Origin: Gammaproteobacteria bacterium
GTDB taxonomy: Bacteria; Pseudomonadota; Gammaproteobacteria; UBA4575
Assembly (NCBI GenBank): GCA_965221955.1
Contig: CBDCTA010000002.1
Span: 32,001 to 96,000 of the forward strand
Reading direction: 5' to 3'
DNA: 64,000 nt
The translations under genes were made by a program, and so were the position numbers. The notes below the pieces were generated by a model. The model was not told where the DNA came from. It ran no database searches and saw nothing but the letters and a program-made list of their open reading frames with translations. This document shows, in pieces, positions 10,927 to 36,591 of this stretch; within the stretch, counting starts at the first letter, position 1; the number at the start of each line of letters is the position of its first letter.

Positions 10927-10942
10927 GTAAGGATACGATAAC

Positions 10943-15169: not shown

Positions 15170-15180
15170 AAATAAAAAAT

Positions 15181-22017: not shown

Positions 22018-22030
22018 TTTTCAAGCTAAG

Positions 22031-22516
22031 TTAATTGCTCAGTTTGCAAAATTTACCCGCATGCCATACTGAAGGTGGGCAACTATTTACACTTAAAAAT
22101 TCAACTTGACCAACTAAAATAATATGGTCTCCACCTGGATAAACGTGACTAGTCTTACATTCTAATGATACAGGGCAGTTAGGGAGAATAGGTAGGCCAG
22201 TTGAGCCTTCAACAAATTCATCACCATCAAATTTGTCACATCCTTTAGTGGCAAATTTAAATGCGAGTGCTTCATGCTCATTATCTATGATATTAACTGC
22301 AAACGTGGTTTTTTTGTTGAAGGATTCAAAACAATCAGCATTATTTGCTAAACAAACTAGTATTAACGGCGGAGAAAGCGATAGTGAAGTAAAAGCAGAA
22401 GCTGTAAAGCCACAACGATCACCTTGGTCATTAATAGTTGTGACTATCGTAACGCCACTAGGAAAGCAAGCCATCGCCTGTTTAAAAGAATCATCATTAA
22501 TTTTGTTGGTTGGCAT
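22031..22516 (-). CDS. Flavin reductase, HpaC/RutF-like
   Basis: FPSGVTIVTT, GFTASAFTSLSLSPPLILVC, GGDHIILVG. Confidence 0.93.
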   Translation of the reverse strand: MPTNKINDDSFKQAMACFPSGVTIVTTINDQGDRCGFTASAFTSLSLSPPLILVCLANNADCFESFNKKTTFAVNIIDNEHEALAFKFATKGCDKFDGDEFVEGSTGLPILPNCPVSLECKTSHVYPGGDHIILVGQVEFLSVNSCPPSVWHAGKFCKLSN

Positions 22517-22638
22517 ATTGTCAAATTATAATTTTACTGCACGATTGAATATACACAATAAATCTACGGTTATCGATGTAATAGGAAATCGCTATTGTTA
22601 TTTTAGTATTTAATCATTTATCTTATACACTATTTACT

Positions 22639-22654
22639 TGCAATTTATATGCCA
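22639..22654 (-). promoter_or_regulatory. sigma54 promoter of the flavin reductase gene
   Basis: Minus strand TGGCATATAAATTGCA, GG-N10-GC. Confidence 0.8.
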
Positions 22655-22736
22655 TTAATGTTTAAAAGTTTAATCTACTTAATCTTCGATTTAATAAGGT
22701 TATGCTATTAAAGTTCAGTGAGCTTAATTATTTATT

Positions 22737-22784
22737 TGTTTCAATATGAAAGCTTGAAAATTTTAACTTGTTCTTTTTGATACA
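22737..22784. promoter_or_regulatory. Putative activator binding sites (UAS)
   Basis: TGTTTCAATATGAAAGC and TGTTCTTTTTGATACA, about 85-130 bp upstream of the minus-strand sigma54 promoter. Confidence 0.55.
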
Positions 22785-23007
22785 AATGTTGTAGTGTAAT
22801 ACTAAACAAAATGTAGCAAATTGATAAATAAAGTATCAGCTACATTCTTTATGAAATCATTATAGTAATGAGAGTTAGTTTGGAAGTGGCTGTAAAGATG
22901 TAAGTTATTAAGTACAAAATCTTTTACAACCCGCTAAATGTGAGCATAAGAAATTGCAGCTATTTTTTTATATTACACAAACTAAACATTAAAATTGAGG
23001 AGTGAAA

Positions 23008-24402
23008 ATGAAAATTTCTCATAAAATTTTAGTTGTTGAACATGATGTAGAGTTTGGTGAATCCGTGAAAATTTTGCTCGATGGTGAGCAAATGTCTGTA
23101 ACACATGTCTCAAAAGTTCATGATGCAATGAAAATGCTCTTGTCAGAGCATTATGATTTAATTTTGAGTGATCTAAAGTTAAGCGGTCCAACTGGCCTGG
23201 ACTTATTAAGAAAGGTTCGTGCTGAAAAGCTAGAAATACCGACGATCATTATGACTAGCTACACTTCTATTAAATGTGCTGCACAAGCATTGCGCCTTGG
23301 TGCTGCAGATTACATCCTAAAACCATTTACTGATTCATATTTATTACATGCTGTCGAGAGATGCTTAAAAGAAAAGTATATTCAAAAAGAAAATACTCTA
23401 TTACGACGAAATTTAAGCGCTGCACTACATACCAAGCAAGAAATAATTGGTGACAGTCATTCCATGCATGAGCTTAAGAAATTAATTAAAAGGGTTGGGC
23501 CAAGTGATGCAACTGTTCTTATACAAGGTGAAAGTGGTACTGGTAAAGAATTGGTGGCCTTAGGAATTCATAAAGAAAGTCCACGAAGAGAAGGTAGATT
23601 TGTTCCTGTTAATTGTGGCGCAATACCAATAGAGTTGATGGAATCTGAATTTTTTGGGCATGTAAAAGGTGCATACACGGGTGCTGTTTCAAGTAAAGTA
23701 GGGCTGATTCAAGAGGCGCATGGGGGAACTCTATTTTTAGATGAGATTTCAGAATTAGCACCAATGCTACAAGTGAAATTGTTGCGATTTATACAGGAAA
23801 AAATGATTAAGCCTGTAGGTGAAAGCAAATCTCATGAGGTAGATGTTCGTATTATTGCTGCATGTAATCGAGATTTACAAAATGAAGTTAATGAAGGGCG
23901 AATGCGAGAAGATTTATTTTATCGATTAAATGTCATTCAAATTTCTGTACCTCCGTTGCGTCAACGACTAGAGGATATAGAAATTCTCACACAATATTTT
24001 ATCAATCATTACAATAATAAATTAGGCAGGAAAATTGATAGTGTTGAAGATGAAGCGATTGACTTATTAAAAGAGTATCAATGGCCTGGAAATATTAGAG
24101 AATTAGAAAATTCAATTGAGCGCGCTGTAATATTAGCTAAAAGTGACGAACTGACTGCAGAAGATTTCAAACATATAAAATCAAATGGAGTAAATCAAAA
24201 ACCAATAAATGGTCAAGAGCATAAGTCACATGAGCCGATGTCAATAGAAGATTATACGCGTCGAGTAATTGAAAATTACCAAGATCGCTATAGTGAAATT
24301 GAACTTGCAAATTTATTAGGCATAGGGCGAAAAGCGTTATGGATGCGCCGAAATAGATGGGGACTGTTTAGGGATAAACCAAAAACAGCTGCAGAATTAT
24401 AA
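23008..24402 (+). CDS. Sigma54-dependent response regulator (REC-AAA+-HTH), CbrB-like C-terminus
   Basis: ILSD phosphoacceptor, GESGTGKE, GAYTGA, LFLDEI, WPGNIRELEN; C-terminal SIEDY...ELANLLGIGRKALW.RR; RBS GAGGAG. Confidence 0.92.
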   Translation: MKISHKILVVEHDVEFGESVKILLDGEQMSVTHVSKVHDAMKMLLSEHYDLILSDLKLSGPTGLDLLRKVRAEKLEIPTIIMTSYTSIKCAAQALRLGAADYILKPFTDSYLLHAVERCLKEKYIQKENTLLRRNLSAALHTKQEIIGDSHSMHELKKLIKRVGPSDATVLIQGESGTGKELVALGIHKESPRREGRFVPVNCGAIPIELMESEFFGHVKGAYTGAVSSKVGLIQEAHGGTLFLDEISELAPMLQVKLLRFIQEKMIKPVGESKSHEVDVRIIAACNRDLQNEVNEGRMREDLFYRLNVIQISVPPLRQRLEDIEILTQYFINHYNNKLGRKIDSVEDEAIDLLKEYQWPGNIRELENSIERAVILAKSDELTAEDFKHIKSNGVNQKPINGQEHKSHEPMSIEDYTRRVIENYQDRYSEIELANLLGIGRKALWMRRNRWGLFRDKPKTAAEL

Positions 24403-24578
24403 GATATACATTAAAAATATTTTATAAGCGACATTTAATTTCTGTATATTTAAATTTATTTCAGATTAAATTTCCATTTTAGCTATTACTCATAACTTAT
24501 ATTCTTAAATAATAATTTACTAATTAGCTCGAAATAGTAGATAAATAAATTCGTTTAAAACAAAAATGTGTGCTTCTT

Positions 24579-24616
24579 TGTTTCTATCTAGATATGTTAA
24601 GTGTCTTTTAGAAACA
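24579..24616. promoter_or_regulatory. Putative activator binding sites (UAS)
   Basis: TGTTTC at 24579 and GAAACA at 24611. Confidence 0.55.
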
Positions 24617-24669
24617 CTCTATTCTATTTAATTCTCTTAACCCTGTGAGTTTGCGCGGTTTGCATAAAC

Positions 24670-24685
24670 AGGAACGAAAATTGCT
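24670..24685 (+). promoter_or_regulatory. sigma54 promoter of the ABC binding protein gene
   Basis: AGGAACGAAAATTGCT, GG-N10-GC. Confidence 0.7.
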
Positions 24686-24903
24686 TTATAATTTAAGTAA
24701 GGTATTCTCATGTGCCGCAAGTTTTTAATTATTTGCTTTTGATGGGTTTGTGTACTCCTTCAACATGAATTAAATTACTAATTTGCGGTTACATGAGATT
24801 ACTGAAAATTCAGAAATTAAAATAACTAAATATAAATCCTTGCTTTTTAATATTCATAGACATGCTATGCAATACACAAAAGTATTTATGTAGGAGGAAA
24901 AAA

Positions 24904-26332
24904 ATGAAGTTCTTTAACTTTACAAAGCTAACAGTGTTAACAATATCATTTGTTGCAATGTTAATTAGTCCTTTAGCAATTTTTGCTGAAGGTAAAATGT
25001 ATATTCCTATACCAAGTTATCGTGTAGGACCATACGCTGCAGGAGGAACAGGTTATTACGGCGGTATTCTTGATTACTATAATCTAATGAATATTCGTGA
25101 TGGCGGTGTAGGCGGTGTCAAACTCACTTGGTCAGAGTGTGAAACAGAATATTCTGTAGAACGAGGTGTTGAATGCTATAAGCGAATGAAAGACCGTGAT
25201 GGTGGGGCATTGTTTTTTGATCCTTTAAGTGTAGGTATAGCAATTGCCTTAAATGAAGTGGTTCGTAAAGATCAAATCCCTATGATCACAGTGAATCATG
25301 GCATGAGTGAAACTATTGATGGTGAGGTTTTCCCATATGTATTTCCATTAGGTATGGGTGTTCCTGATGAATACAATGCAACAGTTCGTTTTATGGCACA
25401 TTTAGAATCTGGTGAAAACCCTAATACGGTTGACATCAAGAAGGCTTTAGATGGCAAGAAAATTGTTACATTATTTCATGGGTCTCCTTATGGAAAAGAA
25501 GCACTTGATTACATGGACGCGATGGGTGAAGAGTATGGATTTGAGCATCATAGAATTGAAATTCCACACCCAGGTAACGAACAGCAAGCGCAATGGCTTC
25601 AGATAAGAAAAATTAAACCAGACTTTGTATTCTTACGTGGATGGGGAGTAATGAACCCTGTAGCAATGCAATCTGCAGCGCGTATTGGTTATCCAGTGTA
25701 ATCGTTTGATTGGAAATATTTGGAGTAATTCAGATGAAGATGTGGTGCCTGCGGGTAAAGCTGCACATGGCTATCAAGCTATTACCACACACCCTGCTGG
25801 TATTTTCGCGGATGTTCAAAATGAAATTATTGAAACCGTCTATGGTGGCGGAAAAGGTGATTTACAAGATAAAAGCCGTCTAGGAAGTGTGTATCATAAT
25901 CTTGGTATCACTGCTGGCATCATGCACGTAGAAGCGATTCGAAATGCTCAAAAACGTTGGGGTAATGTGCCTTTAACCGCACAGCAAGTGCGATGGGGCT
26001 TTGAAAACATTCACTTTGACGAAGCAAGAATTAAAGAGTTAGGTGCTGAAGGTTTGTTAGCGCCAATGTTAGTTACTTGTAAAGATCATGTAGGTGGACA
26101 TAATTCTAAATTCCAAAAATACAATGCTGAGAAACCCGTCAAGTGGGAAATTGTTACACCTTGGATTAAAAGCCAAGCACCAATTGATGGGCTCTATGCG
26201 TCAGCTGAGAAATATCGTGCAGATAACGAAATAGAGAAGCGTAACTGTGACGATGAAAATGATCGTAATAACTGGACGCTATCAGGCGATCAGCCAGCTG
26301 TTCCTGCAGGTGTAAGCACTTGGGGCAGTTAA
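24904..26332 (+). CDS. ABC transporter periplasmic binding protein, branched-chain/LivJ-like family; frameshift near 25697
   Basis: Signal peptide, YRVGPYA, ECETEY..ERGVECY, PGNEQQAQWLQIR, GWGVMN, continuing in another frame as GNIWSNSDED; RBS AGGAGG. Confidence 0.85.
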
Positions 26333-26480
26333 AAGGTATTGTGTCTAGATAGTAAATCTATCTACTTGTACATTAGCTGCGCTTTCAAAACGTAGAACAA
26401 CGCATTAGCCACTGAGCAAAAGGCAAGCCGGGTTACAGGAAGTAACTCGTTACAAGGAAGTGCGTCCGGTTTCGTTCAAT

Positions 26481-26529
26481 GAAACACAAAAATTCGTTTC
26501 TTTTTGACCTATGTTTCTAAAATGAAACA
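26481..26529. promoter_or_regulatory. Putative activator binding sites (UAS)
   Basis: Palindrome TGTTTC-TAAAAT-GAAACA at 26512-26529, plus GAAACA at 26481 and CGTTTC at 26495. Confidence 0.6.
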
Positions 26530-26593
26530 TAATATAGTTCTGTGTAAAAACTTATAGTATATTTATAATTGTATCGATAGATCATGGGTCTTA

Positions 26594-26610
26594 TGGCATA
26601 ATAAAATGCA
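26594..26610 (+). promoter_or_regulatory. Probable sigma54 promoter of the ribBA-sfnG operon
   Basis: TGGCATAATAAAATGCA; GG-N11-GC, one base too long across an A run in an indel-rich stretch. Confidence 0.55.
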
Positions 26611-26674
26611 GAATTAGAGCACAATCGCTGCAAGTTTTTATTCAAGGCAATAACTTATATTCAGTAAGTCATCT

Positions 26675-27916
26675 ATGGGTGAAGTTCAATTTAATAGTAT
26701 TTCTGAAGCATTGATTGATTTGCGTCGAGGTAAGTTAGTAATCGTAGTCGATGATGAATGTCGTGAGAATGAAGGTGATTTCATAGGAGCGGCAGATAAA
26801 TGTACCCCTGAAATGATCAATTTCATGGCTACTCATGGTAGAGGTTTAATTTGTACTGCAATTACAAGAGAACGAGCAGATGAGCTTAATTTAGATTTAA
26901 TGGTATGCTGAGTCAGACAATGATTCATTGCACATGAAACACCGTTTTCACAACTTCTGTAGATTTTAAACATGGAACAACAACAGGAATTTCTGCAGCA
27001 GATCGATCGAAAACAGTTAAAGCTTTGTCAGACCACAAATATTAGATGGGGAAAGATTTTGCACGACCTGGGCATATCTTTCCATTACGTGCGGCTAGAA
27101 GGAGGGGTATTTAGAAGAAATGGTCATACTGAAGCAACGATAGATTTAATGGATTTAGCAGGTTTAAAAAAGCCGGTGTTCTGTGTGAAATTATGAATGA
27201 AGATGGTTCACCATGGCGCGTCTTGCCTGAACTTACAAGACATTGGCAAAGATGCATGGATTAAAGATTAATAAGTATAAAAGACTTAATCCAATATAAA
27301 TTACGTTATGAGTCTAGAGTTCAGCGTGTAGTTACGGTTGATTTGCCAACAAATGGGGCGATTTTGAGTTAGTCGCGTTTAGTGATATTTATACTGATAA
27401 AGAACATTTAGCAATCGTCAAAGGGTCATGGGGAAAAGATGATGAAGTCATTGTGCGAATACATTCTGAATGTTTGACGGGTGATGTATTTGGTTCGTCA
27501 CGTTGTGATTGTGGGGATCAACTTCAATCATCAATTAAAAATTCATCAATGAGCATGGCGCTGGAGTCGTTTTATATATGCGAGAAGAGGGAAGAGGCAT
27601 TGGATTGCTTAGTAAACTTAAAGCCTACTCATTACAAGAATGTGGCTTAGATACTGTTCAAGCAAATAGAGCATTAGGATTTGATGCAGATCATCGAGAC
27701 TACACTGTAGCAGCACATATACTAAGTGCATTGCATGTTGAACGAGTTCAGTTGTTAACAAATAATATGAATAAATGTTGTTGGATGGAGAAACATGGAA
27801 TTGAGTGTACAAAAAGAATTCCGATCTTGTCACCATGTGAAGATCACGAATACCGAAAAAAATATTTAAATACTAAAAAAGAGAAAATGGGTCATGTAAT
27901 CCCCATGAAGAAATGA
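26675..27916 (+). pseudogene. ribBA: Bifunctional DHBP synthase/GTP cyclohydrolase II with multiple frameshifts (sequencing indels or pseudogene)
   Basis: Fragments [64 protein letters not shown] in changing frames. Confidence 0.88.
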
Positions 27917-27980
27917 AAGAGATAAATTATTAATTGTTTTAACCTGGATTATTTAATGGAGAAATTTCGTAGGAGGAAAA

Positions 27981-28169
27981 ATGTCTGAGAATGAAGAATT
28001 TGGTTTAAAGGACTTAACTGCAGAAATGATAAAAATCGTAAGGAATGAGACAAGAGCTGGAACAATAGACTGTAGGGATGCGTTGATTGAAAGTAAGGGA
28101 GATACGGATAAAGCGATAGAGATTTTGAAAGAGAAGGGAATTGGAACACCAAAAAAAGTTTGGACGTAA
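27981..28169 (+). CDS. Stand-alone EF-Ts N-terminal (UBA-like) domain microprotein
   Basis: LTAEMIKIVRNETRAGTIDCRDALIESKGDTDKAIEILKEKG aligns with the EF-Ts N-terminus; RBS AGGAGG. Confidence 0.75.
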   Translation: MSENEEFGLKDLTAEMIKIVRNETRAGTIDCRDALIESKGDTDKAIEILKEKGIGTPKKVWT

Positions 28170-28287
28170 GAATTATGCCTTTTGCAACGGTTGTATTATT
28201 GAATATATTTAACTTGATAAATAATTGTTCAAAGAATGCAGAGAAAATTGATACATAGTCGACTATATAAGAGAACAGAGGTGAAAA

Positions 28288-29460
28288 ATGGCAACATATC
28301 CAAAACTATTACCAAATTCTGAGAATCCACTTAAGCCTTCGGCTTGGCTGGAATCAGATCAAGTGGAGTTTGCGTATTGGGTGCCCAACATATCTGGTGG
28401 TTTGGTAATTACAACACTACCTATGGATACTGATTGGACTCCTGAGGCAAACATTAAATATGCGCAAGATGCAGAAGAAGTAGGATTTGCAACTGCTCTA
28501 TGCCAAACACGTTGGTTTGCAAGTTATGGCGCAGACCATCAACACGAAGCATTCACAATTGCGAATGTACTTCTACAACACACTAAAAAAATTGAAATGA
28601 TTACTGCATGTCATCCCGGTTTATGGCATCCGGCAATTGTGGCTAAGTTGCAAGCATCGCTTGATGTTTGTTGTCAAGGCCGTACTTCAATTAATATCGT
28701 GAGTGGCTGGTTCAAAGGCGAATTTACGGGTTATGGCTTACCATGGCTTGAGCATACTGAACGATATCGTAGATCCGAAGAATTCATTCGTATTATGAAA
28801 GGTATGTGGACTGAAGAAGAGTACACCATGTACGGGGATTTCTATCAAATAAATGGTGCTCCAATGCTACCAAAGCCGTTACACAGAATTACAGTATTTC
28901 AGGGTGGAAACTCTAAAGATGCGCGTCGAATGGCAGGTAGAGTGACAGATTGCTTGTTTATGAATGGAAATACAAACAAAGGCTTTAAAGAAATTATGGA
29001 TGATTCTCGTGCCTCTGCAGTCGAGAGTGGTCGTGATCCTAACGAACTTAAGTTTGGTGCAAATGGTTTTTGTATTGTTCGCGATACGATGGAAGAAGCA
29101 ACCGATACTTTGCGTGAAATCATCGTTAATGCTGATGTAGAAGCTGTGAAGGGTTTTGGTGAAGCTGTGAAAAACGCAGGCCGATCATCTGCTGAAGGTG
29201 AAGGCATGTGGGCAAATTCATCATTTGAAGATTTAGTTCAATATAATGATGGCTTTAAGACTGGCCTTATTGGCACACCAGAAACAGTTGCTGATCGTAT
29301 TATTGAGCTAAAACAGTTAGGTATGAAAGTAATCCTTTGTGGGTTCTTGCACTACAATACAGACTTAAGAGCATTTGGCGAGAAGGTTATTCCTTTAGTG
29401 CGTGAGAAAGAAGAAGACCTTCGCAAAGGTAAGTCTTACGGCAAAAAGAAGTCTGCTTAA
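28288..29460 (+). CDS. sfnG: Luciferase-like FMNH2-dependent monooxygenase, SfnG (dimethylsulfone monooxygenase) family
   Basis: FAYWVPNISGGLV, NIVSGWFKGEF, EHTERYRRSEEFIR, FQGGNS, FEDLVQYNDGFKTGLIGTP, GFLH. Confidence 0.85.
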   Translation: MATYPKLLPNSENPLKPSAWLESDQVEFAYWVPNISGGLVITTLPMDTDWTPEANIKYAQDAEEVGFATALCQTRWFASYGADHQHEAFTIANVLLQHTKKIEMITACHPGLWHPAIVAKLQASLDVCCQGRTSINIVSGWFKGEFTGYGLPWLEHTERYRRSEEFIRIMKGMWTEEEYTMYGDFYQINGAPMLPKPLHRITVFQGGNSKDARRMAGRVTDCLFMNGNTNKGFKEIMDDSRASAVESGRDPNELKFGANGFCIVRDTMEEATDTLREIIVNADVEAVKGFGEAVKNAGRSSAEGEGMWANSSFEDLVQYNDGFKTGLIGTPETVADRIIELKQLGMKVILCGFLHYNTDLRAFGEKVIPLVREKEEDLRKGKSYGKKKSA

Positions 29461-29521
29461 TCAAGTAAAGTACTAAGCTTAGATTATCTAATGCTATGTA
29501 TTTTCCTCTGCCAGAAACGCT

Positions 29522-29561
29522 GAGAAAAGGAATTAAATAGAAATTATAAATTCCTTTTCTC
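29522..29561 (+). terminator. 13-bp stem-loop between sfnG and the FMN reductase (partial terminator or mRNA stabiliser)
   Basis: GAGAAAAGGAATT-N14-AATTCCTTTTCTC. Confidence 0.65.
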
Positions 29562-29596
29562 TTGTCGTTTCTAGCATTATTTAGGAGGTATATGTA

Positions 29597-30196
29597 ATGA
29601 AATTACTAGGAATATCAGGAGGCATGAGTCAAAAAACTCTTGTTGCTTTAGAAAAGGCACTTGATTTTGCATATCAATATGACAATGCTATAGATATTGA
29701 GGTAATAAGTATTGGCGAGCTTGATATCCAATTTTGTGATGGTAGAGATCCGGCAAAATATGAAGGCGATACAAAGCTTATTATTGACAAAATTATTGAT
29801 GCAGATGCATTGATATTTGGAACACCGATGTATCGAGGGACTTATACTGGACTGTTAAAAAACGTTTTTGACTTAATCCCGAATGACGCACTTATGGGTA
29901 AACCAGTAGGCTTGATTGCAACAGGTGGTAGTGATCATCATTATTTAGCATTAGAGCACGAACTCAAACCTTTGTTAGGTTTTTTTCTCGCACACGCTAT
30001 TCCTGGGAATGTGTATGCAAATAATGAGCATTATTCTAATAGGGATTTAGTAGATCAAGATGTTCTTGACCGTTTAAGAGAGCTTGCAGAGTCTATTGTA
30101 AATTTTGTAAGAATCTTGCCGGAAGATAAAGCAAGCCTCGTAGGTGCGAGAGCACCCACTATAAGAAGGAAGCCTATACTAAAAAAAGCTAGTTAA
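29597..30196 (+). CDS. NAD(P)H-dependent FMN reductase (SsuE/MsuE/SfnF family)
   Basis: GTPMYRGTYTGLLKNVFDL, ATGGSDHH, LEHELKPLLGFF. Confidence 0.9.
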   Translation: MKLLGISGGMSQKTLVALEKALDFAYQYDNAIDIEVISIGELDIQFCDGRDPAKYEGDTKLIIDKIIDADALIFGTPMYRGTYTGLLKNVFDLIPNDALMGKPVGLIATGGSDHHYLALEHELKPLLGFFLAHAIPGNVYANNEHYSNRDLVDQDVLDRLRELAESIVNFVRILPEDKASLVGARAPTIRRKPILKKAS

Positions 30197-30233
30197 AAAT
30201 AAATAATAAATACTCATATTGTCGGAGGAACGT

Positions 30234-30539
30234 ATGTCTCAAAATAATCCTAAATATAAAATTTTGCAGCAAGTCGTAGATGAAGAAACGTATAGGACAG
30301 ATACATCTACTTTATTGGCTTATGATGAAGGCAATAGTAAATTTCTTTTTAGGGCATTAAATTCTAATTATTTTTTACAAAGTGACGATAAAGAAGAAAT
30401 ACAAGTATTAGAAATGGGTGAGGCTGAAGAGATGTGGAATGAAATGCCAAATAAGCATGTAACGAATATTACTGCTGCATTTCCAAAATATCATGGTGGT
30501 GTAGGAATGGATACCTATACTAATTTGTATGACGACTAA
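30234..30539 (+). CDS. Hypothetical protein
   Basis: GGAGG RBS and ATG at 30234; 101 aa; no motif recognised. Confidence 0.75.
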   Translation: MSQNNPKYKILQQVVDEETYRTDTSTLLAYDEGNSKFLFRALNSNYFLQSDDKEEIQVLEMGEAEEMWNEMPNKHVTNITAAFPKYHGGVGMDTYTNLYDD

Positions 30540-30588
30540 TCTTGTAGCACATTAAGATAATTAGCTTATAAGCTTTAAGGGGTTAGTA

Positions 30589-31164
30589 ATATCTACATTA
30601 GTAATACCTCCGTTAAATTATTGCACTAATTGTGGAGCAAAACTTACACGTTTTGTTCCAAATGGCGACTTGTTAGAGCGTAGTGTTTGTCATAAATGCG
30701 AACTAGTTCATTACGAAAATCCAAAAATACTTGTAGGAAGCATTATTGATTGCGATAGCAAAGTTTTATTATGCAAACGGGCAACTGAGCCGCGTCTGGG
30801 TTATTGGACATTGCCATCTGGCTATATGGAAAATAATGAAACTGTTCATGCTGCTGCGCTTCGTGAAACCTATGAAGAAACTAAGGTATCAGTGGAGGAG
30901 TTGAGTTTATACTCAGTATTCTCATGCCCTAACATAAATCAAGTTTACTTTATATTTCGTGGTCAGGCAGATAATGACTGCGCCTCTACAACAGAGGAAA
31001 GTTCAGAGACAAGATATTTTCAAAAACAAGATATTCCCTGGCATGATTTATCTTATTCTATTATGAAACAAGCCTTAGAGTGGTATTTTCACGATAAAGA
31101 AATTGGTAGCTACCACTTTAGAATGCATGATGTGTATGGTTGCGATCCGGATTTACAATCATAA
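30589..31164 (+). CDS. Zinc-ribbon NUDIX hydrolase (start codon uncertain)
   Basis: Frame open upstream of the track start gives NYCTNCG...CHKC..HYENPK; Nudix box GYMENNETVHAAALRETYEE. Confidence 0.85.
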   Translation: MSTLVIPPLNYCTNCGAKLTRFVPNGDLLERSVCHKCELVHYENPKILVGSIIDCDSKVLLCKRATEPRLGYWTLPSGYMENNETVHAAALRETYEETKVSVEELSLYSVFSCPNINQVYFIFRGQADNDCASTTEESSETRYFQKQDIPWHDLSYSIMKQALEWYFHDKEIGSYHFRMHDVYGCDPDLQS

Positions 31165-31225
31165 ATAAAACTCAATTAGTGTGTTGTTCCCACACTACTA
31201 AAATCCTAACCTTTTGCTCTTCATA

Positions 31226-31265
31226 TGTTTCAAAGTGCACATATCCAGATAGCGTTAATGAAACA
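31226..31265. promoter_or_regulatory. Putative activator binding sites (UAS)
   Basis: TGTTTCAAAGTGCACA at 31226 and GAAACA at 31260. Confidence 0.55.
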
Positions 31266-31345
31266 TGTTAATTTTTAAATTAATAATGAATTCACTATTG
31301 ATACTTAAACTACTAGTTATTAAGGCAATATTTTTTCATAAATTG

Positions 31346-31361
31346 TGGCCCATTAGTTGCA
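31346..31361 (+). promoter_or_regulatory. sigma54 promoter of the osmC-osmC-acs-lpdA operon
   Basis: TGGCCCATTAGTTGCA, GG-N10-GC. Confidence 0.8.
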
Positions 31362-31402
31362 GGTATTTTAATTAAAGCTGTTAAAAATTAGGAAATGTAA
31401 GG

Positions 31403-31972
31403 TTGAGCCAAGAGAATATTAGAGATAATACAAGTTTAAAAGACTCCGTATTAAATCTTATTAGTAAAACTTCTGCTGACGAAAATGTTGGGAAATTTTC
31501 CTATAGTGTTTATACACATAATGAAGGAGGGGTATTGTGTAAAGCAAGGGTGCGAAATGAACATAGTTTAGTTGTTGATGAGAAACCAATCTTAGGCGGT
31601 TGTGATTTGGGTATGAGCCCCATTGAGCTTTTATTAGTTTCATTAGGTACATCACAAGAAATTGTATTCTCGATGATGGCGTCTAAATTAAATATTGAAT
31701 TAGAAGAATGTGAAGTGCAGTTAACAGCGGAATTAGATGTAAGAGGAATGCTTGGTGTTGCAGATAGGAACAATGAGGCAGGAACTGGGCTTAGCAATAT
31801 TAATTATACTACTAAATTGAAAAGTAACGCTTCAAGTAAGCAGCTTGAAGTGCTAATCCAAGCAGTTAAAAAACAATGTCCAGTATTAAATATATTGACA
31901 GAGAAAGTAAGTGTAAAAGGCACAACAATAATAAATAACTATGAATTGAATCATAGAGATAAAGTTGCCTAA
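31403..31972 (+). CDS. OsmC/Ohr family protein, first catalytic Cys replaced by Ser
   Basis: VDEKPILGGCDLGMSPIELLLVSLGTSQ ... QCPV. Confidence 0.85.
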   Translation: MSQENIRDNTSLKDSVLNLISKTSADENVGKFSYSVYTHNEGGVLCKARVRNEHSLVVDEKPILGGCDLGMSPIELLLVSLGTSQEIVFSMMASKLNIELEECEVQLTAELDVRGMLGVADRNNEAGTGLSNINYTTKLKSNASSKQLEVLIQAVKKQCPVLNILTEKVSVKGTTIINNYELNHRDKVA

Positions 31973-32062
31973 TTACTCAAATATTTGCTGTTGTAGATAT
32001 TTGAGGTCATTGATTCTGTTTTTCCATTTTAAATTTATACTTGAAAAAAATAAAAATAACTT

Positions 32063-32668
32063 ATGAGTAGTGAGAATGTTTCGAGTTTAGAAACAGTAAA
32101 AGTTGCTGTAGGTAAAATTATATCTAGTGCTAATGAAGATTCAGAGTATGGAAATTTTAAGTACTACGTAAATACTAAGTGGGAAGGTGGTACCCTTTGT
32201 AAAAATCAGATACGCCGAGCGCATAAACTTTTAGTAGATGAGCCTCCTGCTTTTGGGGGTGATGATTTAAGTGCTAGTCCAGTTGAACTTGTGCTAGCTG
32301 CACTTGGTTCATGCCAAATAATAATGTTTTCAGCATTAGCTGCAACTAGAAGTATTGAGCTCGAAGAGTGCGAAGTAACCTTAAAAGCACGTCTAAATGT
32401 AAGAGGTTTGCTTGGAATAAAAGAAAATAACCAGCCTGTATACCCAGGGTTTTCAAGCATAGATTACGAAACAAAGCTTAAAAGTTCTGAGCCAAAAGAT
32501 ATTCTTGCAAAACTTATTGAAGATGTCGAAAACCAATGTCCCGTGATGGATATGCTTACACGCTCAATGAGTGTGAATGGAAATGCTTTTGTTAATGAAG
32601 AGCCAATAGATATAAATACGAAAAAATCAATATTGTCTAAACTACTGCATATATTTCGTAAAAAATAA
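32063..32668 (+). CDS. OsmC/Ohr family protein with both catalytic Cys
   Basis: VDEPPAFGGDDLSASPVELVLAALGSCQ ... QCPV. Confidence 0.9.
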   Translation: MSSENVSSLETVKVAVGKIISSANEDSEYGNFKYYVNTKWEGGTLCKNQIRRAHKLLVDEPPAFGGDDLSASPVELVLAALGSCQIIMFSALAATRSIELEECEVTLKARLNVRGLLGIKENNQPVYPGFSSIDYETKLKSSEPKDILAKLIEDVENQCPVMDMLTRSMSVNGNAFVNEEPIDINTKKSILSKLLHIFRKK

Positions 32669-32681
32669 ATTCACTTTTGAT

Positions 32682-34580
32682 ATGTCCACTTTTTTTACAG
32701 AATCTAATTACAAAGCGCTATACCAATGGTCAATGGATGAGCCTGATGCATTTTGGGCTGCACAAGCGAATGAGTTTGTGCATTGGATATCGCCATGGTC
32801 GAAGGTTATGGTTCAAGATGAACATAGGGTACATGCAGAATGGTTTGTCGGGGGTAAAATAAACGTTGCATATAATTGTGTCGATCGGCATTTAGAAGCC
32901 AATGGCGATAAGACTGCCATTATTTGGGAAGGTGATGATCCTAATGAGGTCAAAACATTAACGTATAAAGAATTGCATAAAGAAGTTTGTAAGTTTTCAA
33001 ATGTGCTGAAAGCTAATGGGGTTAAAAAAGGCGATCGTGTATGTGTTTATATGCCATTGATAATAGAAACGGCAGTTGCCATGCTTGCTTGTGCCAGAAT
33101 AGGTGCGATTCATTCTGTTGTTTTTGGGGGTTTCTCAGCAAAGTCACTCAGTGACAGAATTCAAGATGCAGAATGTAAGCTTCTAGTCACTGCAAACGAA
33201 GGATTGCGTGGCGGCAAAATTATTCCAATAAAGGACATTGCTGACCAAGCTCTTGAAACTTGTCCTAACGTGAAGACAGTAATCGTAGTAAAACGCACGT
33301 TGAATTCAACAAATATGATTGAGGGTCGAGATGTCTGGTATGAAGATGAAGTAAGCAAGGTATCTGATGAATGCCCTGTTGAAGAAATGAATTCAAGTGA
33401 CCCATTGTTTATTTTATACACATCTGGTTCTACTGGTAAGCCAAAAGGAATTTTACATGGTTCTGCAGGCTATCTGCTGCATGTCTGTTTGACGCATAAA
33501 TATATTTTTGATCATAAAGAAAACGATATATATTGGTGTACTGCAGACCTTGGTTGGGTTACAGGGCATTCGTATGTGTTATATGGTCCATTATCAAATG
33601 GCGCGACTACCTTAATGTTTGAAGGAGTGCCTACCTACCCGGATGCAAGTCGTTATTGGCAGATCGTAGATAAATATAACGTTAATATTTTTTACACTGC
33701 GCCAACTATATTGCGGACATTAACTGCATTTGGGGAAGAACCTATAAAAAATTATTCATTAGATAGTTTGCGATTACTCGGAACTGTAGGTGAACCCATC
33801 GATGTTGATACTTGGGATTGGTATTTTGAAAATATTGGGCATAAAAAATGTCCAATTATCGATACTTGGTGGCAAACCGAAACAGGAGGTGTGCTAATTT
33901 CTCAATTGCCAGGAGAAATCTCTGAGCAATGTGGCACAAATGCAAAACCCTTTCTAGGTATTGTGCCAGCACTTGTTGACGACAATGAAAATTTGATGGA
34001 AGAGAATTCTGGAAATCTAGTAATTAAGCAACCATGGCCTGGTCAAATGCTTACAATATATGGCGATCAAAAAAGATTTGAAGAAACCTATTTTACAGAT
34101 AGCAGTAAAGGAGGCTATTACTACCCCAGTGATCGGGCTTTAATTCAAGATGATGGTTCGGTTCGTGTTACTGGGCGTACAGATGACACCTTGAATGTAT
34201 CTGGACACCTTTTTGGTGCAACAGAAATTGAAAGCGCATTAATACTGCATGACTTGGTAGCAGAAGCAGCAGTAGTAGGGTATCCACATCCAGTAAAAGG
34301 AGAAGGGATCTATTCATTCGTTGCATTGAATAAAGGTGTGCATTCAAGTGATCAAATGAATGATGAACTAAACCAAATTGTACGAGAACAAATCAGTGCT
34401 GTCGCAAAACCAGATGTAATCCATTGTGTAACTGAGTTGCCTAAAACCCGTAGCGGAAAAATTATGCGACGTATTCTTAGAAAAATTGCAATTAATGATT
34501 TTTCTGATTTGGGAGATACGTCAACCTTAGTTAATCCAGCCATTGTCAATGAGTTAATTGAAAGCAGGAAAAACGTCTAG
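32682..34580 (+). CDS. acs: Acetyl-CoA synthetase
   Basis: YTSGSTGKPKG, YWCTADLGWVTGHSY, DTWWQTETGG, LPKTRSGKIMRRILRK. Confidence 0.95.
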   Translation: MSTFFTESNYKALYQWSMDEPDAFWAAQANEFVHWISPWSKVMVQDEHRVHAEWFVGGKINVAYNCVDRHLEANGDKTAIIWEGDDPNEVKTLTYKELHKEVCKFSNVLKANGVKKGDRVCVYMPLIIETAVAMLACARIGAIHSVVFGGFSAKSLSDRIQDAECKLLVTANEGLRGGKIIPIKDIADQALETCPNVKTVIVVKRTLNSTNMIEGRDVWYEDEVSKVSDECPVEEMNSSDPLFILYTSGSTGKPKGILHGSAGYLLHVCLTHKYIFDHKENDIYWCTADLGWVTGHSYVLYGPLSNGATTLMFEGVPTYPDASRYWQIVDKYNVNIFYTAPTILRTLTAFGEEPIKNYSLDSLRLLGTVGEPIDVDTWDWYFENIGHKKCPIIDTWWQTETGGVLISQLPGEISEQCGTNAKPFLGIVPALVDDNENLMEENSGNLVIKQPWPGQMLTIYGDQKRFEETYFTDSSKGGYYYPSDRALIQDDGSVRVTGRTDDTLNVSGHLFGATEIESALILHDLVAEAAVVGYPHPVKGEGIYSFVALNKGVHSSDQMNDELNQIVREQISAVAKPDVIHCVTELPKTRSGKIMRRILRKIAINDFSDLGDTSTLVNPAIVNELIESRKNV

Positions 34581-34588
34581 TTCCAGAT

Positions 34589-36283
34589 ATGGGAAATAGA
34601 ATAGAAATTAAAGTTCCTGATTTATCAGGAGTAAGCGATGTTCCTGTTACAGAGTTATTTGTATCTCCAGATCAAGCAGTAGAAGCAGGCGATAATCTCA
34701 TCGCCATCGAAACAGAAAAAACGATAATTGATATTCCTTCACCTGTGAAAGGGATAGTAAAAGAAATATCAGTTTCCGTTGATGAGCGTGTAAAAGAAGA
34801 TCAAGTATTGCTGGTAATTGAATCAGATGAAGAATTGTCTGATTCAGCGGAAAAACCAAAATCAAATAGCATTAATCAAGATCTACATACACAAGTATTA
34901 GTAATCGGGTCAGGGCCAGGCGGTTATTCAGCTGCATTTAGAGCTGCTGACCTTGGAAAAAAAGTTGTTTTAGTCGAGCGTAATCAAACACTGGGAGGGG
35001 TGTGCTTGAATGTAGGTTGTATTCCATCTAAATCTTTACTTCACGCTGCGAAAGTTATAAGTGAGTCAAAGGAAATGTCAAAGTTTGGGGTGAAATTTCC
35101 TTTGCCTGAAATAGACACTCAGATATTACGATCGTGGAAAAACAGTGTTATTAAAAAGTTAACAGGTGGCTTAAACAGTCTTGCAAAAAATCGCAATGTA
35201 AAAATTGTAAATGGACAAGCAAAATTCTTATCTTCAAAGCAAATCTCTTTGCAAACTGGAGATAACAAGGTCTATAAAATTGATTTTGAACAGGCCATCA
35301 TTGCTGTCGGCTCAGAACCAGTAAAATTCTCACAGTTTCCACATGAAGATAGTCGAATGTTAACTTCAACTGAAGCTTTGGAAGTAAACGAGATTCCGGA
35401 AAGATTATTGATTGTTGGTGGAGGGATCATTGGTTTAGAGATGGCTACGGTTTATCACGAGCTTGGATCAAAAGTAACGGTTGTTGAATTTGCCAACTCC
35501 TTGATACCGGGAGCAGATCCTGATTTAGTTAAACCGTTGTATCAACGAATTTCGAAAATGTATGAAGATATATATTTAAATACAAAGGTCAGTAGCGTTG
35601 AATCGACTTTAAATGGAATGTATGTTCGCTATGAAGGCCAGGCAAAAAAGAAGAAAGACGTATTCGATCAAGTGCTTGTGGCAGTTGGAAGAACGCCAAA
35701 TGGAAATATGATTGATGCTGAAAAAGCAGGTATAAACGTTAATGAACAAGGTTTCATCACTGTTAACGAAAAATTACAAACAAATGTTGACAATATATAC
35801 GCAATAGGAGATGTGGTAGGTCAGCCTATGCTTGCACATAAAGCGGCTCATGAAGGTAAAGTTGCGGCAGAAGTGATATCTGGCTTAACTGGATATTTTG
35901 ACAATACACTAATACCATCTGTTGCATATACTGATCCTGAAATTGCATGGGTTGGCATAACAGAGACTGAAGCAAAGCAACAAAATTTAGACTTCGAGAC
36001 TGCAATATTTCCTTGGGCAGCAAGCGGTAGATCCTTAAGTATTGAGAGAAATGAAGGCATGACAAAAACTATTTATAACTTGAAATCAAAAAAAATAATA
36101 GGTGCAGGAATAGTAGGAACAAATGCTGGTGAATTGATTTCTGAAGCAGCTTTAGCTATAAAAATGGGTGCGACTTCAAGCGATATAAGCGAGTTGATTC
36201 ATCCGCATCCAACTCTTAGCGAAACGGTAGGTTTTTCTGCTGAGGTGTTTGATAAAACAATTGTAGAAATGTATTTAAAATAA
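34589..36283 (+). CDS. lpdA: Dihydrolipoamide dehydrogenase with N-terminal lipoyl domain
   Basis: Lipoyl motif IETEKT..DIPSP; GGVCLNVGCIPSK; LAHKA; IHPHPTLSE. Confidence 0.95.
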   Translation: MGNRIEIKVPDLSGVSDVPVTELFVSPDQAVEAGDNLIAIETEKTIIDIPSPVKGIVKEISVSVDERVKEDQVLLVIESDEELSDSAEKPKSNSINQDLHTQVLVIGSGPGGYSAAFRAADLGKKVVLVERNQTLGGVCLNVGCIPSKSLLHAAKVISESKEMSKFGVKFPLPEIDTQILRSWKNSVIKKLTGGLNSLAKNRNVKIVNGQAKFLSSKQISLQTGDNKVYKIDFEQAIIAVGSEPVKFSQFPHEDSRMLTSTEALEVNEIPERLLIVGGGIIGLEMATVYHELGSKVTVVEFANSLIPGADPDLVKPLYQRISKMYEDIYLNTKVSSVESTLNGMYVRYEGQAKKKKDVFDQVLVAVGRTPNGNMIDAEKAGINVNEQGFITVNEKLQTNVDNIYAIGDVVGQPMLAHKAAHEGKVAAEVISGLTGYFDNTLIPSVAYTDPEIAWVGITETEAKQQNLDFETAIFPWAASGRSLSIERNEGMTKTIYNLKSKKIIGAGIVGTNAGELISEAALAIKMGATSSDISELIHPHPTLSETVGFSAEVFDKTIVEMYLK

Positions 36284-36285
36284 AT

Positions 36286-36576
36286 ATGAATGATGCTCTT
36301 ACAAATGAGCTTGAAAGAAGAGTGGATGAGGTCTTATTTTATTTTTGGGACCCATTTGGATTAAAAGACGAACCTTATGCAAGGACTGAATATCGATCCT
36401 ATGTACAGGAGGTTTATCGTTATTTGCAAAATAATAAGTCAGCAGAAGAAATGGCTAGATTGCTTATCGACATAGTAGAAAATCGAATGGGAATTTCTAT
36501 TAATCATGACCTTGCGGAAAATGTAGGCAAGTTGTTACTTAGACATAAAAAAGCAGTTGAATCAGGAATATCCTAA
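36286..36576 (+). CDS. Hypothetical protein (WDP..EY motif, DUF1871-like)
   Basis: FWDPFGL....RTEYRSY; 2 nt after the lpdA stop. Confidence 0.6.
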   Translation: MNDALTNELERRVDEVLFYFWDPFGLKDEPYARTEYRSYVQEVYRYLQNNKSAEEMARLLIDIVENRMGISINHDLAENVGKLLLRHKKAVESGIS

Positions 36577-36591
36577 CTAGAAAATTCAAAA

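Follow-up and report, generated by a model that had tools for sequence, protein, structure and literature searches.

Positions 22031-36576 of the window, the whole 64,000-nt stretch of DNA analyzed here, form one unit in which an activator, sigma-54 promoters and enhancer sites accompany genes centered on the dimethylsulfone (DMSO2) monooxygenase SfnG: two flavin reductases, ribBA, a periplasmic binding protein, two OsmC proteins, an acetyl-CoA synthetase (Acs) paralogue and a dihydrolipoyl dehydrogenase with its own lipoyl domain (lipoyl-LpdA). The host is an uncultured marine gammaproteobacterium (genome completeness 96.6%) and a Dsr/Apr sulfur oxidizer, with dsrABEFHCMKL, aprA (1101 bits) and rpoN (504 bits) present in its genome. 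With confidence a little above even, we read the unit as an accessory island, wholly switched by sigma-54, for DMSO2 oxidation in uncultured marine sulfur-oxidizing Gammaproteobacteria, with OsmC and LpdA acting as peroxide defense and the small protein hyp106 as an SfnG subunit. We rate the island a variant of the Pseudomonas SfnR/sfnG system. Its features, in window coordinates, are:

22031..22516, minus strand: HpaC/RutF-type NAD(P)H:flavin reductase, single gene from P1 (Pfam Flavin_Reduct, 128 bits)
22640..22655, minus strand: sigma-54 promoter P1 (GG-N10-GC), serving the flavin reductase gene
22737..22753, no strand: upstream enhancer site at about 82 bp from P1; N5 palindrome, imperfect, only one half-site being exact
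23002..24402, plus strand: enhancer-binding protein (REC, AAA+ with GAYTGA loop, weak Fis-type HTH), without a sigma-54 promoter of its own
24579..24616, no strand: enhancer site for P2, TGTTTC-N26-GAAACA
24670..24685, plus strand: sigma-54 promoter P2 (GG-N10-GC), before the binding-protein gene
24862..26332, plus strand: Peripla_BP_6 periplasmic binding protein with signal peptide, one frameshift near 25697
26481..26529, no strand: enhancer sites for P3; palindrome at 26512-26529, spacer N6 in the window versus N5 in relatives
26594..26610, plus strand: promoter P3, defective in the window (GG-N11-GC, one base too long), before ribBA
26677..27916, plus strand: ribBA pseudogene, at least 8 indels in its first two thirds; orthologue intact, 408 aa
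27981..28169, plus strand: UBA-like protein of 62 aa resembling the EF-Ts N-terminal domain, directly upstream of sfnG
28288..29460, plus strand: SfnG, FMNH2-dependent dimethylsulfone monooxygenase (TIGR04021, 551 bits)
29597..30196, plus strand: MsuE-like NAD(P)H:FMN reductase (Pfam FMN_red, 99.8 bits)
30219..30539, plus strand: hyp106, unnamed small protein, predicted SfnG lid binder (complex prediction, locus context)
30670..31164, plus strand: Nudix hydrolase, its N-terminal stretch rich in Cys (domain match)
31226..31265, no strand: enhancer site for P4, TGTTTC-N28-GAAACA
31346..31361, plus strand: sigma-54 promoter P4 (GG-N10-GC), before osmC1
31403..31972, plus strand: OsmC1, first catalytic Cys replaced by Ser in the window
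32063..32668, plus strand: OsmC2, both Cys and the conserved Arg and Glu kept
32682..34580, plus strand: Acs paralogue of the Leu-for-Arg526 subfamily (TIGR02188, 937 bits)
34589..36283, plus strand: dihydrolipoyl dehydrogenase with N-terminal lipoyl domain (TIGR01350, 496.5 bits)
36286..36576, plus strand: hyp96, unnamed, last gene of the P4 operon (ORF call, locus comparison)

The activator carries a receiver domain (REC, 80 bits), a Sigma54_activat domain (230 bits) and a weak HTH_8 match (13.8 bits, cut-off 22). The label "CbrB-like" given to it originally finds no support, as no NCBIfam equivalog passes and the best, AtoC, reaches 390 bits where 714 are required. Orthologues with at least 70% identity are restricted to the 7 relatives possessing clade-A SfnG; a search for the cognate kinase of the activator found none. 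Sigma-54 promoters were accepted where GG and GC stand exactly 10 bases apart in a TGGCAY-N5-TTGCW-like site and the genome encodes rpoN. Of four promoters predicted earlier, P1, P2 and P4 have this canonical spacing, whereas P3 (26594) is GG-N11-GC in the window and canonical GG-N10-GC in relatives. Counting sites that score at least 12 in related loci from several genera, P1 is kept before the flavin reductase in 12/14 loci, P2 before the binding-protein gene in 15/15, P3 before ribBA in 10/15 and P4 before osmC in 11/18; six of the seven P4 misses are loci without acs, and the remaining one, L027, scores 11.5. In control regions, a sigma-54 site precedes the activator in 0/15 loci and the UBA-like gene in 0/16.

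The TGTTTC/GAAACA half-sites reported 55-130 bp upstream of each promoter are likewise real and conserved across loci. They take two forms, YGTTTC-N5-GAAACR before ribBA (N6 in the window) and TGTTTC-N26-28-GAAACA before both the binding-protein gene and osmC. The hexamer by itself shows no enrichment across the window (55 copies, 50 expected); convergent half-site pairs within 40 bp number four, all of them (4/4) inside the cluster. Genome-wide, a palindrome lies upstream of only 4 of 1165 sigma-54-like sites: two of these belong to the island, another is an artefact, and the last is a new site on contig C29. Promoter and palindrome are thus paired almost exclusively in this unit. We infer that the activator binds these GTTTC/GAAAC sites after activation by a kinase, possibly with the periplasmic binding protein as ligand sensor. 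P1 would then drive the flavin reductase gene and P2 the binding-protein gene, with P3 serving ribBA, the UBA-like gene, sfnG, the msuE-like reductase gene, hyp106 and the Nudix gene, and P4 serving osmC1, osmC2, acs, lipoyl-lpdA and hyp96.

Of 40 related genomes, the same seven encode close (clade-A) SfnG and orthologues of the activator and of OsmC2. Gene order is preserved across loci, and dN/dS is 0.03-0.16 for each gene with estimable dS (about 0.03 for sfnG). The gene set is conserved, and the sequence comparisons indicate that the island is inherited as a block; with conserved promoters and enhancer sites and every named gene found, this bears out the original prediction that about 13 genes are tied together as an activator-centered sigma-54 unit. 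We find it very improbable that two unrelated modules simply adjoin here, a DMSO2 operon and a separately controlled oxidative-stress or acetate operon (osmC-acs-lpdA). Such an arrangement could draw on the ability of an osmC/lipoyl-lpdA pair to stand alone and on the loci lacking acs, which have no separate promoter before osmC, but P4 and P2 are preceded by identical enhancer half-sites, OsmC2 orthologues are confined to the 7 relatives with clade-A SfnG, and OsmC adjoins sfnG in 16/16 clade-A loci with a downstream flank.

SfnG lies above the curated TIGR04021 equivalog cut-off (382.95 bits) and matches PDB 8t0u at 410 bits. As the ternary complex of the P. fluorescens enzyme is described in the cited account, DMSO2 is bound by W11, Q53, R55, Y60, W121, F267, W285, Y296 and N297 (PMC11588060), and 9/9 of these residues are identical in the window SfnG with a numbering offset taken from the alignment. 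Identity extends to 5/8 of the FMN-contacting residues (I54, G120, H136, Y140, G186, S188, S189, N284), the differences being I54 to T (a backbone contact), S188 to N and N284 to M. The nine kept contacts and the passed curated model argue against the earlier suggestion of another substrate, for example a methyl ketone, which is not borne out. SfnG would take FMNH2 from the reductases and split DMSO2 into methanesulfinate and formaldehyde. Orthologues of the HpaC/RutF-type reductase occur in 14 loci, the MsuE-like reductase reaches 135 bits against TIGR03566 (under the cut-off of 212.5), and ribBA, perhaps with the Nudix hydrolase, would sustain flavin supply. The UBA-like protein, found in 15 related loci, gives 42.6 bits to TIGR00116, under the cut-off, and weak UBA and CUE matches.

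The 106-aa hyp106 follows or lies beside sfnG in 25 of 26 loci, and the minimal clade-B unit is just ribBA-sfnG-hyp106. Complex prediction from our own alignments gave hyp106-SfnG a score of 0.86, a measure of model confidence, while the best of 3 controls scored 0.00; of solved complexes, 58 of 80 attain the mark applied to such scores, versus 2 of 110 mismatched pairs. Three runs had at least 86% of contacts in common, with partner pLDDT at least 86, and the predicted interface covers SfnG residues 268-328, which correspond to the lid under a worked-out numbering offset. These models suggest that hyp106 is a subunit sitting on the SfnG lid.

A link from this protein to dimethylsulfide (DMS) comes from the new site on contig C29, a fifth promoter with island-type sites that recurs in G004. 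It lies ahead of a Crp/Fnr-type regulator gene, which adjoins a hyp106 paralogue and, after it, the gene for DMS monooxygenase (DmoA; 827 bits to PDB 6ak1). The position of this promoter near dmoA and the hyp106 paralogue ties the regulon to methylated-sulfur use generally, and the enhancer motif defined here brings genes for DMSO2 and genes for DMS together in a single regulon. The genome resembles Hyphomicrobium-type DMS degradation in having DmoA and SBP56-family genes; it differs in the entry of DMSO2 via SfnG, in the hyp106 paralogue before dmoA and in the adjoining Crp/Fnr-type regulator with the island's promoter signature.

Within the P4 operon, the reading that suits OsmC and lipoyl-LpdA best is that of a peroxidase dependent on lipoyl groups. 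In OsmC2, C84, C159, R51 and E75, the presumed catalytic residues, are invariant or nearly so in 19 sequences. LpdA exceeds the TIGR01350 cut-off of 408.8 bits; its redox Cys pair are its only 2 Cys, and its Biotin_lipoyl domain (52.5 bits) has the Lys. Electrons would flow from NADH to LpdA, on to its own lipoyl arm and then to OsmC, which would clear peroxides arising from free reduced flavin and peroxyflavin chemistry. In the Ohr/OsmC systems, the reductants used in the cell are lipoyl groups attached to proteins, and E. coli OsmC is active in an Lpd-coupled assay (PMC5384416); a two-Cys OsmC-family protein and a lipoyl group kept reduced by dihydrolipoyl dehydrogenase are thus common to both. 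Here, in contrast, lipoyl carrier and dehydrogenase form one fused protein, encoded next to OsmC, the OsmC proteins have 189-201 aa with a conserved third Cys, and the pair is under sigma-54 control with a flavin monooxygenase. OsmC and LpdA had been proposed as catabolic enzymes, and the peroxidase pair fits better, a second osmC/lipoyl-lpdA pair being found on contig C18 at a locus without sfnG or acs. The peroxidase reading leaves unaccounted for both the position of acs inside the osmC-lpdA operon and the loss of Arg526 from Acs.

This Acs stands above the TIGR02188 cut-off of 725 bits and matches S. enterica Acs (PDB 2p2f/1pg4) at 774 bits, with the acetate-pocket motifs and the equivalents of Arg191, Arg584 and Lys609 kept. 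It differs at the Arg526 equivalent (Se Arg526 / Mt Arg528), which is Leu in 8/8 cluster copies and Arg in the housekeeping copy; among the top 120 Acs homologues, 32 have Leu at this position and 87 Arg. When the enzyme is in the state that forms the thioester, that Arg binds the phosphate of the adenylate (PMC10455477). Nothing points to acetate as a pathway product, as had been envisaged: of 16 clade-A loci, 6 have no acs, and a seventh (G010) has a frameshifted copy.

In the Pseudomonas pathway, as outlined in the cited accounts, methanesulfinate made by SfnG is handled by MsuC and then MsuD (PMC8234197, PMC13352529). Here, the best non-SfnG matches to the MsuD/SsuD model (TIGR03565, cut-off 518) are 55 bits in the host's own genome and 122-127 bits in 5 cluster-bearing relatives, the SfnB/MsuC family (TIGR04022) has zero matches in the own genome, and no CysH, CysD or CysI type genes of assimilatory sulfate reduction were found there. 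No known gene accounts for a next step after methanesulfinate. Without MsuC, MsuD and SsuD, the island lacks a route freeing usable sulfur and alone would be nearly pointless. The canonical explanation, msuD or ssuD elsewhere in the genome, finds no gene above cut-off, and given the conserved gene set, a noncanonical fate of methanesulfinate is a fair inference. Because the host is a Dsr/Apr oxidizer that lacks assimilatory sulfate reduction, both sulfur supply and energy are possible purposes of the unit.

Dissimilatory DMSO2 oxidation, close to the earlier view, strikes us as unlikely. An unrecognized enzyme, or SfnG with hyp106, would cleave the second C-S bond to give sulfite, which APS reductase would oxidize for energy, and formaldehyde would be oxidized too. 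The host's dsr genes and aprA favor this, as do a SorA-like molybdenum sulfite oxidase at a more distant SfnG locus (L043) and the minimal clade-B unit, which implies that the finishing enzyme must be small or encoded elsewhere. However, no candidate enzyme was found, the host has no glutathione-dependent formaldehyde dehydrogenase (best match 27.9 bits), and the accounts cited above assign those steps to MsuC and then MsuD, not to a second SfnG cleavage, which was reportedly tested and not seen.

We regard as improbable a reductive salvage in which Acs adenylates methanesulfinate and OsmC with NADH-driven lipoyl-LpdA reduces it to methanethiol. The sulfinyl-adenylate would be attacked by a thiol of CoA, of an OsmC Cys or of the lipoyl arm, and the resulting thiosulfinate would be reduced stepwise, in chemistry that would parallel sulfiredoxin. 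Methanethiol would then pass to methionine via MetY, and also via a methanethiol-oxidase-like protein to sulfide and Dsr/Apr energy. Methanesulfinate is close to acetate in size and shape, MsuC, MsuD and SsuD were not found, and without CysH, CysD and CysI type genes sulfite would be of little biosynthetic use. The host has two MetY genes, an SBP56 (methanethiol-oxidase-like) gene is present in 25/25 genomes of the family versus 1/16 from other families, and DmoA, also a methanethiol producer, is tied to the regulon. In Balneolaceae, sfnG lies between metY and metX, once with osmC after it. The Leu-at-Arg526 subfamily of the cluster Acs would fit as well, given the part in thioester formation that the cited work ascribes to the Arg (PMC10455477). 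Yet no such enzyme activity is known, and in the literature searched, the three papers that bring together methanesulfinate, methanethiol and a reductase all describe the oxidative route; moreover, acs is not universal in clade-A loci, the Acs acetate-pocket motifs are unaltered, and the osmC/lipoyl-lpdA pair also occurs apart from sfnG and acs. It is equally doubtful that Arg526-less Acs, OsmC and lipoyl-LpdA constitute an ATP/NADH-dependent free-sulfinate reductase (methanesulfinate to methanethiol) and that hyp106 represents a new family of subunits that bind the lid of luciferase-like flavin monooxygenases, its partners being SfnG and DmoA. If true, DMSO2 would feed both methionine synthesis and energy from methanethiol through sulfide and Dsr/Apr, in bacteria unable to assimilate sulfate.

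Our preferred reading, a sigma-54-switched island for DMSO2 oxidation, shares with Pseudomonas sfn/msu (SfnR, sfnFG/sfnG, msuEDC), as far as published descriptions of that system extend, an FMNH2-dependent SfnG with an MsuE-type reductase and sigma-54 promoters with a dedicated enhancer-binding protein. The activator here has a receiver domain, which SfnR is not known to have; MsuC, MsuD and SsuD were not found; and as assimilatory sulfate reduction is missing from the host, there is no ground for assuming a CysB-type sulfate-starvation setting. The island has in addition the binding protein, OsmC, lipoyl-LpdA, Acs, ribBA, hyp106 and the UBA-like protein. Marine dimethylsulfide is commonly oxidized to DMSO2, whose use by bacteria is not known to have been worked out beyond soil pseudomonads and Acinetobacter, where it serves to scavenge sulfur via MsuC and MsuD/SsuD. 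Here, a marine sulfur-oxidizer lineage unable to assimilate sulfate encodes the pathway's opening enzyme within a closely conserved regulon, and the later enzymes were not found, making testable the fate of methanesulfinate, the role of a small lid-binding partner for SfnG and DmoA, and the use of an Arg-less acetyl-CoA synthetase.

Finally, the window's own copy of the island is decaying: the binding-protein gene is frameshifted (its orthologue is intact, 477 aa), ribBA is a pseudogene and the spacing of P3 is wrong. With the putative sensor gene, ribBA and P3 damaged, the island may be partly silent in this genome. The wrong P3 spacing, together with a terminator-like hairpin 3' of the binding-protein gene in the window, means that sfnG may go uninduced here. 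In the contig of a near-identical strain, base 25698 of the binding-protein gene is absent, and a contig from run X1 has one base fewer at 26513, in the P3 palindrome.

Open reading frames and family scans place the following genes within window positions 22031-36576, here called the island, in a genome, G000, of 2.69 Mb (29 contigs, 96.6% complete, GC about 36%), where the window is C2:32001-96000.

Genes of the island (all within 22031-36576)
Minus strand: HpaC/RutF-type flavin reductase
Sigma-54 activator with REC, Sigma54_activat and AAA-lid domains
Peripla_BP_6 binding protein with signal peptide
ribBA
EF-Ts-N/UBA-like protein, 62 aa
SfnG
MsuE-like FMN reductase
hyp106, an unnamed protein of 106 aa, no family
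Nudix hydrolase
Two OsmC proteins, OsmC1 and OsmC2
Acs
LpdA with a lipoyl domain
Unnamed protein of 96 aa, no family

The SfnG protein passes the equivalog model and aligns over its full length with the P. fluorescens enzyme, and in the alignment it keeps nine of the nine residues that contact dimethylsulfone (DMSO2) or form its aromatic cage (residue list from PMC11588060). Because these residues are kept, and because the enzyme of PMC11588060 also takes ethyl sulfones with lower efficiency, the predicted substrate is a dialkylsulfone, most simply DMSO2. The original prediction had named a sulfone or a methyl ketone; the first stands, with DMSO2 as its simplest form, and the full set of contact and cage residues leaves the ketone unsupported. 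On balance, and with somewhat better than even confidence, we read the island as an inducible DMSO2 monooxygenase system with its own flavin supply and a dedicated peroxidase, one that leaves the sulfinate step open.

Four sigma-54 promoters had been proposed, at 22639 on the minus strand, 24670, 26594 and 31346. Canonical GG-N10-GC sites are indeed present at 22640 (minus strand), 24670 and 31346, before the flavin reductase, the binding-protein gene and osmC; the site at 26594 before ribBA fails in the window, its spacing being one base over canonical, while the aligned site is correct in the related genomes G010 and G004. Taking the best site per upstream region of related loci (many of them kin, and some two contigs of a single MAG), we found a score of at least 12 upstream of the flavin reductase in 12 of 14 loci, of the binding-protein gene in 15/15 (row L025, a coordinate artefact, left out), of ribBA in 10/15 and of osmC in 11/18, where L027 reached 11.5 and the remaining six misses are exactly the loci that lack acs. 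The claimed promoters with TGTTTC/GAAACA sites are kept across related loci, with empty control regions upstream of the activator (0/15) and the UBA-like gene (0/16); a further control, upstream of sfnG, gave one site, in a locus (L034) that has no ribBA. A sigma-70/terminator scan was uninformative, as promoter-like sites were rarer than in shuffles.

The enhancer sites are of two types, a tight palindrome YGTTTC-N5-GAAACR before ribBA (spacer N6 in the window) and TGTTTC-N26-28-GAAACA upstream of both the binding-protein gene and osmC. By itself the hexamer shows no enrichment in the window (55 observed vs 50 expected); convergent hexamer pairs no more than 40 bp apart number four there, all inside the cluster. 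Genome-wide, 1165 sites score at least 12, and a palindrome lies 40-240 bp upstream of just four: the promoters of the binding-protein gene and osmC, an opposite-strand artefact near the ribBA promoter, and a new site at C29:472530(-). This last has both palindrome types upstream, and the gene driven is a Crp/Fnr-type regulator, opposite which a paralogue of hyp106 (51% identity, E 3e-33) and the DMS monooxygenase DmoA (827 bits vs PDB 6ak1) are encoded divergently. The same layout occurs in G004 and G007, with promoter and N5 palindrome also present in G004. The regulator/paralogue/DmoA locus spans G000:C29:471701-475061 (L080 9701-13062), and its DmoA is very similar to the Hyphomicrobium enzyme. 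Within the first codons of osmC2 (window 32077-32095) there is also a TGTTTC-N7-GAAACA, like the enhancer half-sites.

In 25 of the 26 loci with SfnG of at least 70% identity and a downstream flank, hyp106 follows sfnG; the exception is a second copy in G022. Of the roughly 204 database relatives of hyp106, none has a name or a Pfam family. In its predicted structure (pLDDT 79), hyp106 combines a beta-meander and short helices, and a Gly-rich acidic tail is conserved; Foldseek gave no match in the PDB at E ≤0.001, the best protein-atlas score was 0.87, to unnamed clusters only, and a PipX-like fold (best VIA-align match, Z 4.8) was too weak to use. Co-folding of hyp106 with SfnG scored 0.86, whereas the best of three controls stayed at 0.00. 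In calibration, 58 of 80 solved complexes came up to this mark, as did 2 of 110 mismatched pairs, counts that are only rough here as our own alignments were used. Runs had at least 86% of contacts in common, with partner pLDDT of at least 86. The predicted interface joins the conserved hyp106 stretches 45-50 and 86-105 to SfnG 228-231, 268-299 and 309-328, taking in the lid segment as well as neighbours of F290, W308, Y319 and N320. To our knowledge no complex of this type has been solved, which makes it improbable that the model merely reproduced a known structure; the prediction supports, short of proof, binding of hyp106 to the SfnG lid. A hyp106 paralogue also precedes dmoA, suggesting a general accessory role with luciferase-like monooxygenases.

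The gene set proposed as one unit is conserved in other genomes: among 40 relatives, SfnG occurs at 90-95% identity in G002, G004, G007, G010, G017, G019 and G022, and orthologues of the activator (at least 70%) and OsmC2 (at least 65%) occur in exactly those seven and no others. Beside this co-occurrence, the idea that two modules are merely adjacent strikes us as very unlikely. All relatives in which SfnG was found are uncultured 'Gammaproteobacteria bacterium' or 'Thiotrichales' MAGs. Across 32 compared loci, the 16 clade-A loci (SfnG at least 84%) with a downstream flank all have OsmC, with acs in 10 and missing in 6; in G010, acs is split across two frames. A second clade (SfnG 80-81% identity, 7 loci) has just ribBA-sfnG-hyp106 amid housekeeping genes. 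Against three relatives, dN/dS is 0.03-0.16 for all genes with usable dS, dS being saturated.

Several other sfnG loci stand out. The second sfnG of G022 (L018, G022:C1:880500-900000; 79% identity) stands with an opposite-strand UBA-like gene and an msuE-like gene, without hyp106. A 5.8-kb 'Winogradskyella' contig (L031, NZ_JANQOM010000035.1) bears the gammaproteobacterial cluster with SfnG at 93% identity, and is probably mis-binned. Two Balneolaceae loci (L051 8561-13907 and L048 4607-9857) have sfnG within a methionine operon, in the order CoA-binding protein, MetY, SfnG, OsmC or FMN reductase, MetX, homoserine dehydrogenase. A more distant SfnG locus (L043 5541-15663) encodes a hybrid histidine kinase, a LuxR-type regulator and a SorA-like molybdenum sulfite oxidase.

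In the window copy, the binding-protein gene has one frameshift, ribBA at least eight indels (mostly around 26900-27560) between intact neighbours, and OsmC1 has lost its first Cys. From the sequence, we read the indels as real decay, not assembly noise. A near-identical strain contig (run X1) lacks both the frameshift base of the binding-protein gene and the extra base in the palindrome before ribBA. The frameshift site and the decayed stretch of ribBA both lie outside the contigs of runs X2-X4; at a likeness of at least 92%, 26568-27009 and 27231-27451 have no coverage, and between the two there is only a 21-letter joint side from run X2. The binding-protein gene is followed, at window 26400-26480, by a conserved hairpin and T-run, terminator-like by eye, which is probably a terminator and would limit read-through from the promoter of that gene. 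RNAalifold gave 0 pairs there on a ragged alignment; in L033 both arms differ, in a manner that looks compensatory by eye.

On its flanks, the island has a flagellar cluster and HDOD/GGDEF genes 5' and a sortase/VIT-VWA pair 3'. The flagellar export and regulation genes (fliR, flhB, flhA, flhF, a MinD-like gene, fliA) lie at 9021-15915, and the sortase with its VIT-VWA target at 36592-39280. An Rfam scan of 20000-38000 (E up to 1) gave zero matches, and hence no FMN riboswitch before ribBA. Elsewhere in the genome, two 709-aa proteins with identical scores, each a membrane domain fused to a pyridine-nucleotide disulfide oxidoreductase (C10:9926-11281 and C29:124750-126105), may reflect either a duplication or a repeat made in assembly.

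Common to the 19 OsmC sequences are one Arg, one Glu and two Cys, plus a third conserved Cys. In the island LpdA, the only cysteines are the redox pair; the protein has a lipoyl domain that includes the Lys, and a C-terminal His-Pro-Thr-Leu-Ser-Glu stretch. Systems of the SfnG type work with free reduced flavin and by peroxyflavin chemistry, and the title of a 2023 paper by Mangkalee suggests that hydrogen peroxide is involved. Since, in addition, PMC5384416 names protein-bound lipoyl groups as the biological reductants of Ohr/OsmC, the most economical reading is a self-contained peroxidase chain in which electrons pass from NADH via LpdA and lipoyl to OsmC. A literature search found no link of sfnG with OsmC or lipoamide dehydrogenase, in a coverage that takes in few subscription journals and no supplements and so is not proof of absence. 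Sulfur economy, with Cys/Met-poor paralogues, was rejected, the differences being too small (LpdA 2.3% vs 3.2-4.8% in four other LpdA-like paralogues; Acs 3.8% vs 4.5%). Elsewhere the genome encodes an LpdA of housekeeping type, and C18 bears another osmC/lipoyl-lpdA pair (G000:C18:188581-190919, L078 7582-9920). Genes for an outer-membrane channel of FadL/TodX type and for a PAS histidine kinase with LuxR-type response regulator lie 5' of this pair.

Acs is encoded twice in the genome, in the cluster and by a housekeeping gene, the two being 59% identical. The cluster Acs keeps the pocket motifs and the equivalents of Arg191, Arg584 and Lys609; the Arg526 equivalent is Leu in all eight cluster copies. 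Among the best 120 database homologues, 32 have Leu, 87 Arg and one Asn; the Leu homologues are ranks 1-32 minus P0258, plus P0277, at 61-100% identity. P0258, a 973-aa 'FolD-Acs fusion', was dropped as a chimera of fragments. According to PMC10455477, changes at this Arg lower kcat 130-326-fold in AcsMt, whose Ala variant is not saturable with CoA or acetate, and the effect in AcsSe is milder. Judged by sequence, the Leu-for-Arg526 enzymes are a distinct subfamily, and an ordinary reaction should not be assumed.

With dsrABEFHCMKL and aprA found in its genome, the host is a sulfur oxidiser, and since CysH/CysD/CysI-type genes were not found it looks like one unable to assimilate sulfate: no PAPS_reduct match exceeded 28 bits in any of 16 family genomes searched, and no CysI-type NIR_SIR was found in its own genome (96.6% complete). 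The dsr set, complete and oxidative-type, lies at G000:C29:296984-305439 (L079). The lack of the usual downstream genes, first noted for the window, extends to the genome: SsuD/MsuD above cut-off was not found in 6/6 genomes checked, nor was any SfnB/MsuC family gene in the host genome. Glutathione-dependent formaldehyde dehydrogenase was likewise not found. Control of sfnG by a dedicated activator via sigma-54 is already known in Pseudomonas; by comparison, the new features of the island are an activator with a receiver domain, accompanied by a binding protein, a defined enhancer motif that reaches the dmoA locus, the predicted hyp106 partner, a predicted co-regulated OsmC/lipoyl-LpdA pair with an Arg-less Acs, and a sulfur oxidiser without the downstream pathway.

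Without a further step the island would be almost useless, and for this reason we give weight to two alternatives to a monooxygenase system that leaves the sulfinate step open. An unrecognised route to sulfite, which would feed the Apr enzyme of this host, is possible but improbable. That the Acs/OsmC/LpdA set reduces methanesulfinate to methanethiol we hold to be decidedly unlikely; such a reaction would agree with the Arg-less Acs, both MetY genes of the host, the metY-sfnG-osmC-metX operon of Balneolaceae, the DmoA link and a family-wide SBP56 gene (25/25 family genomes vs 1/16 from other families), but acs is lost in many loci; literature covering few subscription journals and no supplements gave only the oxidative route for methanesulfinate with methanethiol and a reductase. 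Enzymes of the NtaA/DmoA family were found in 7 of 41 genomes, each of which also bears SfnG. A tandem pair of SBP56 (methanethiol-oxidase-like) genes, one with an in-frame TAG, is located at G000:C28:132512-135372.
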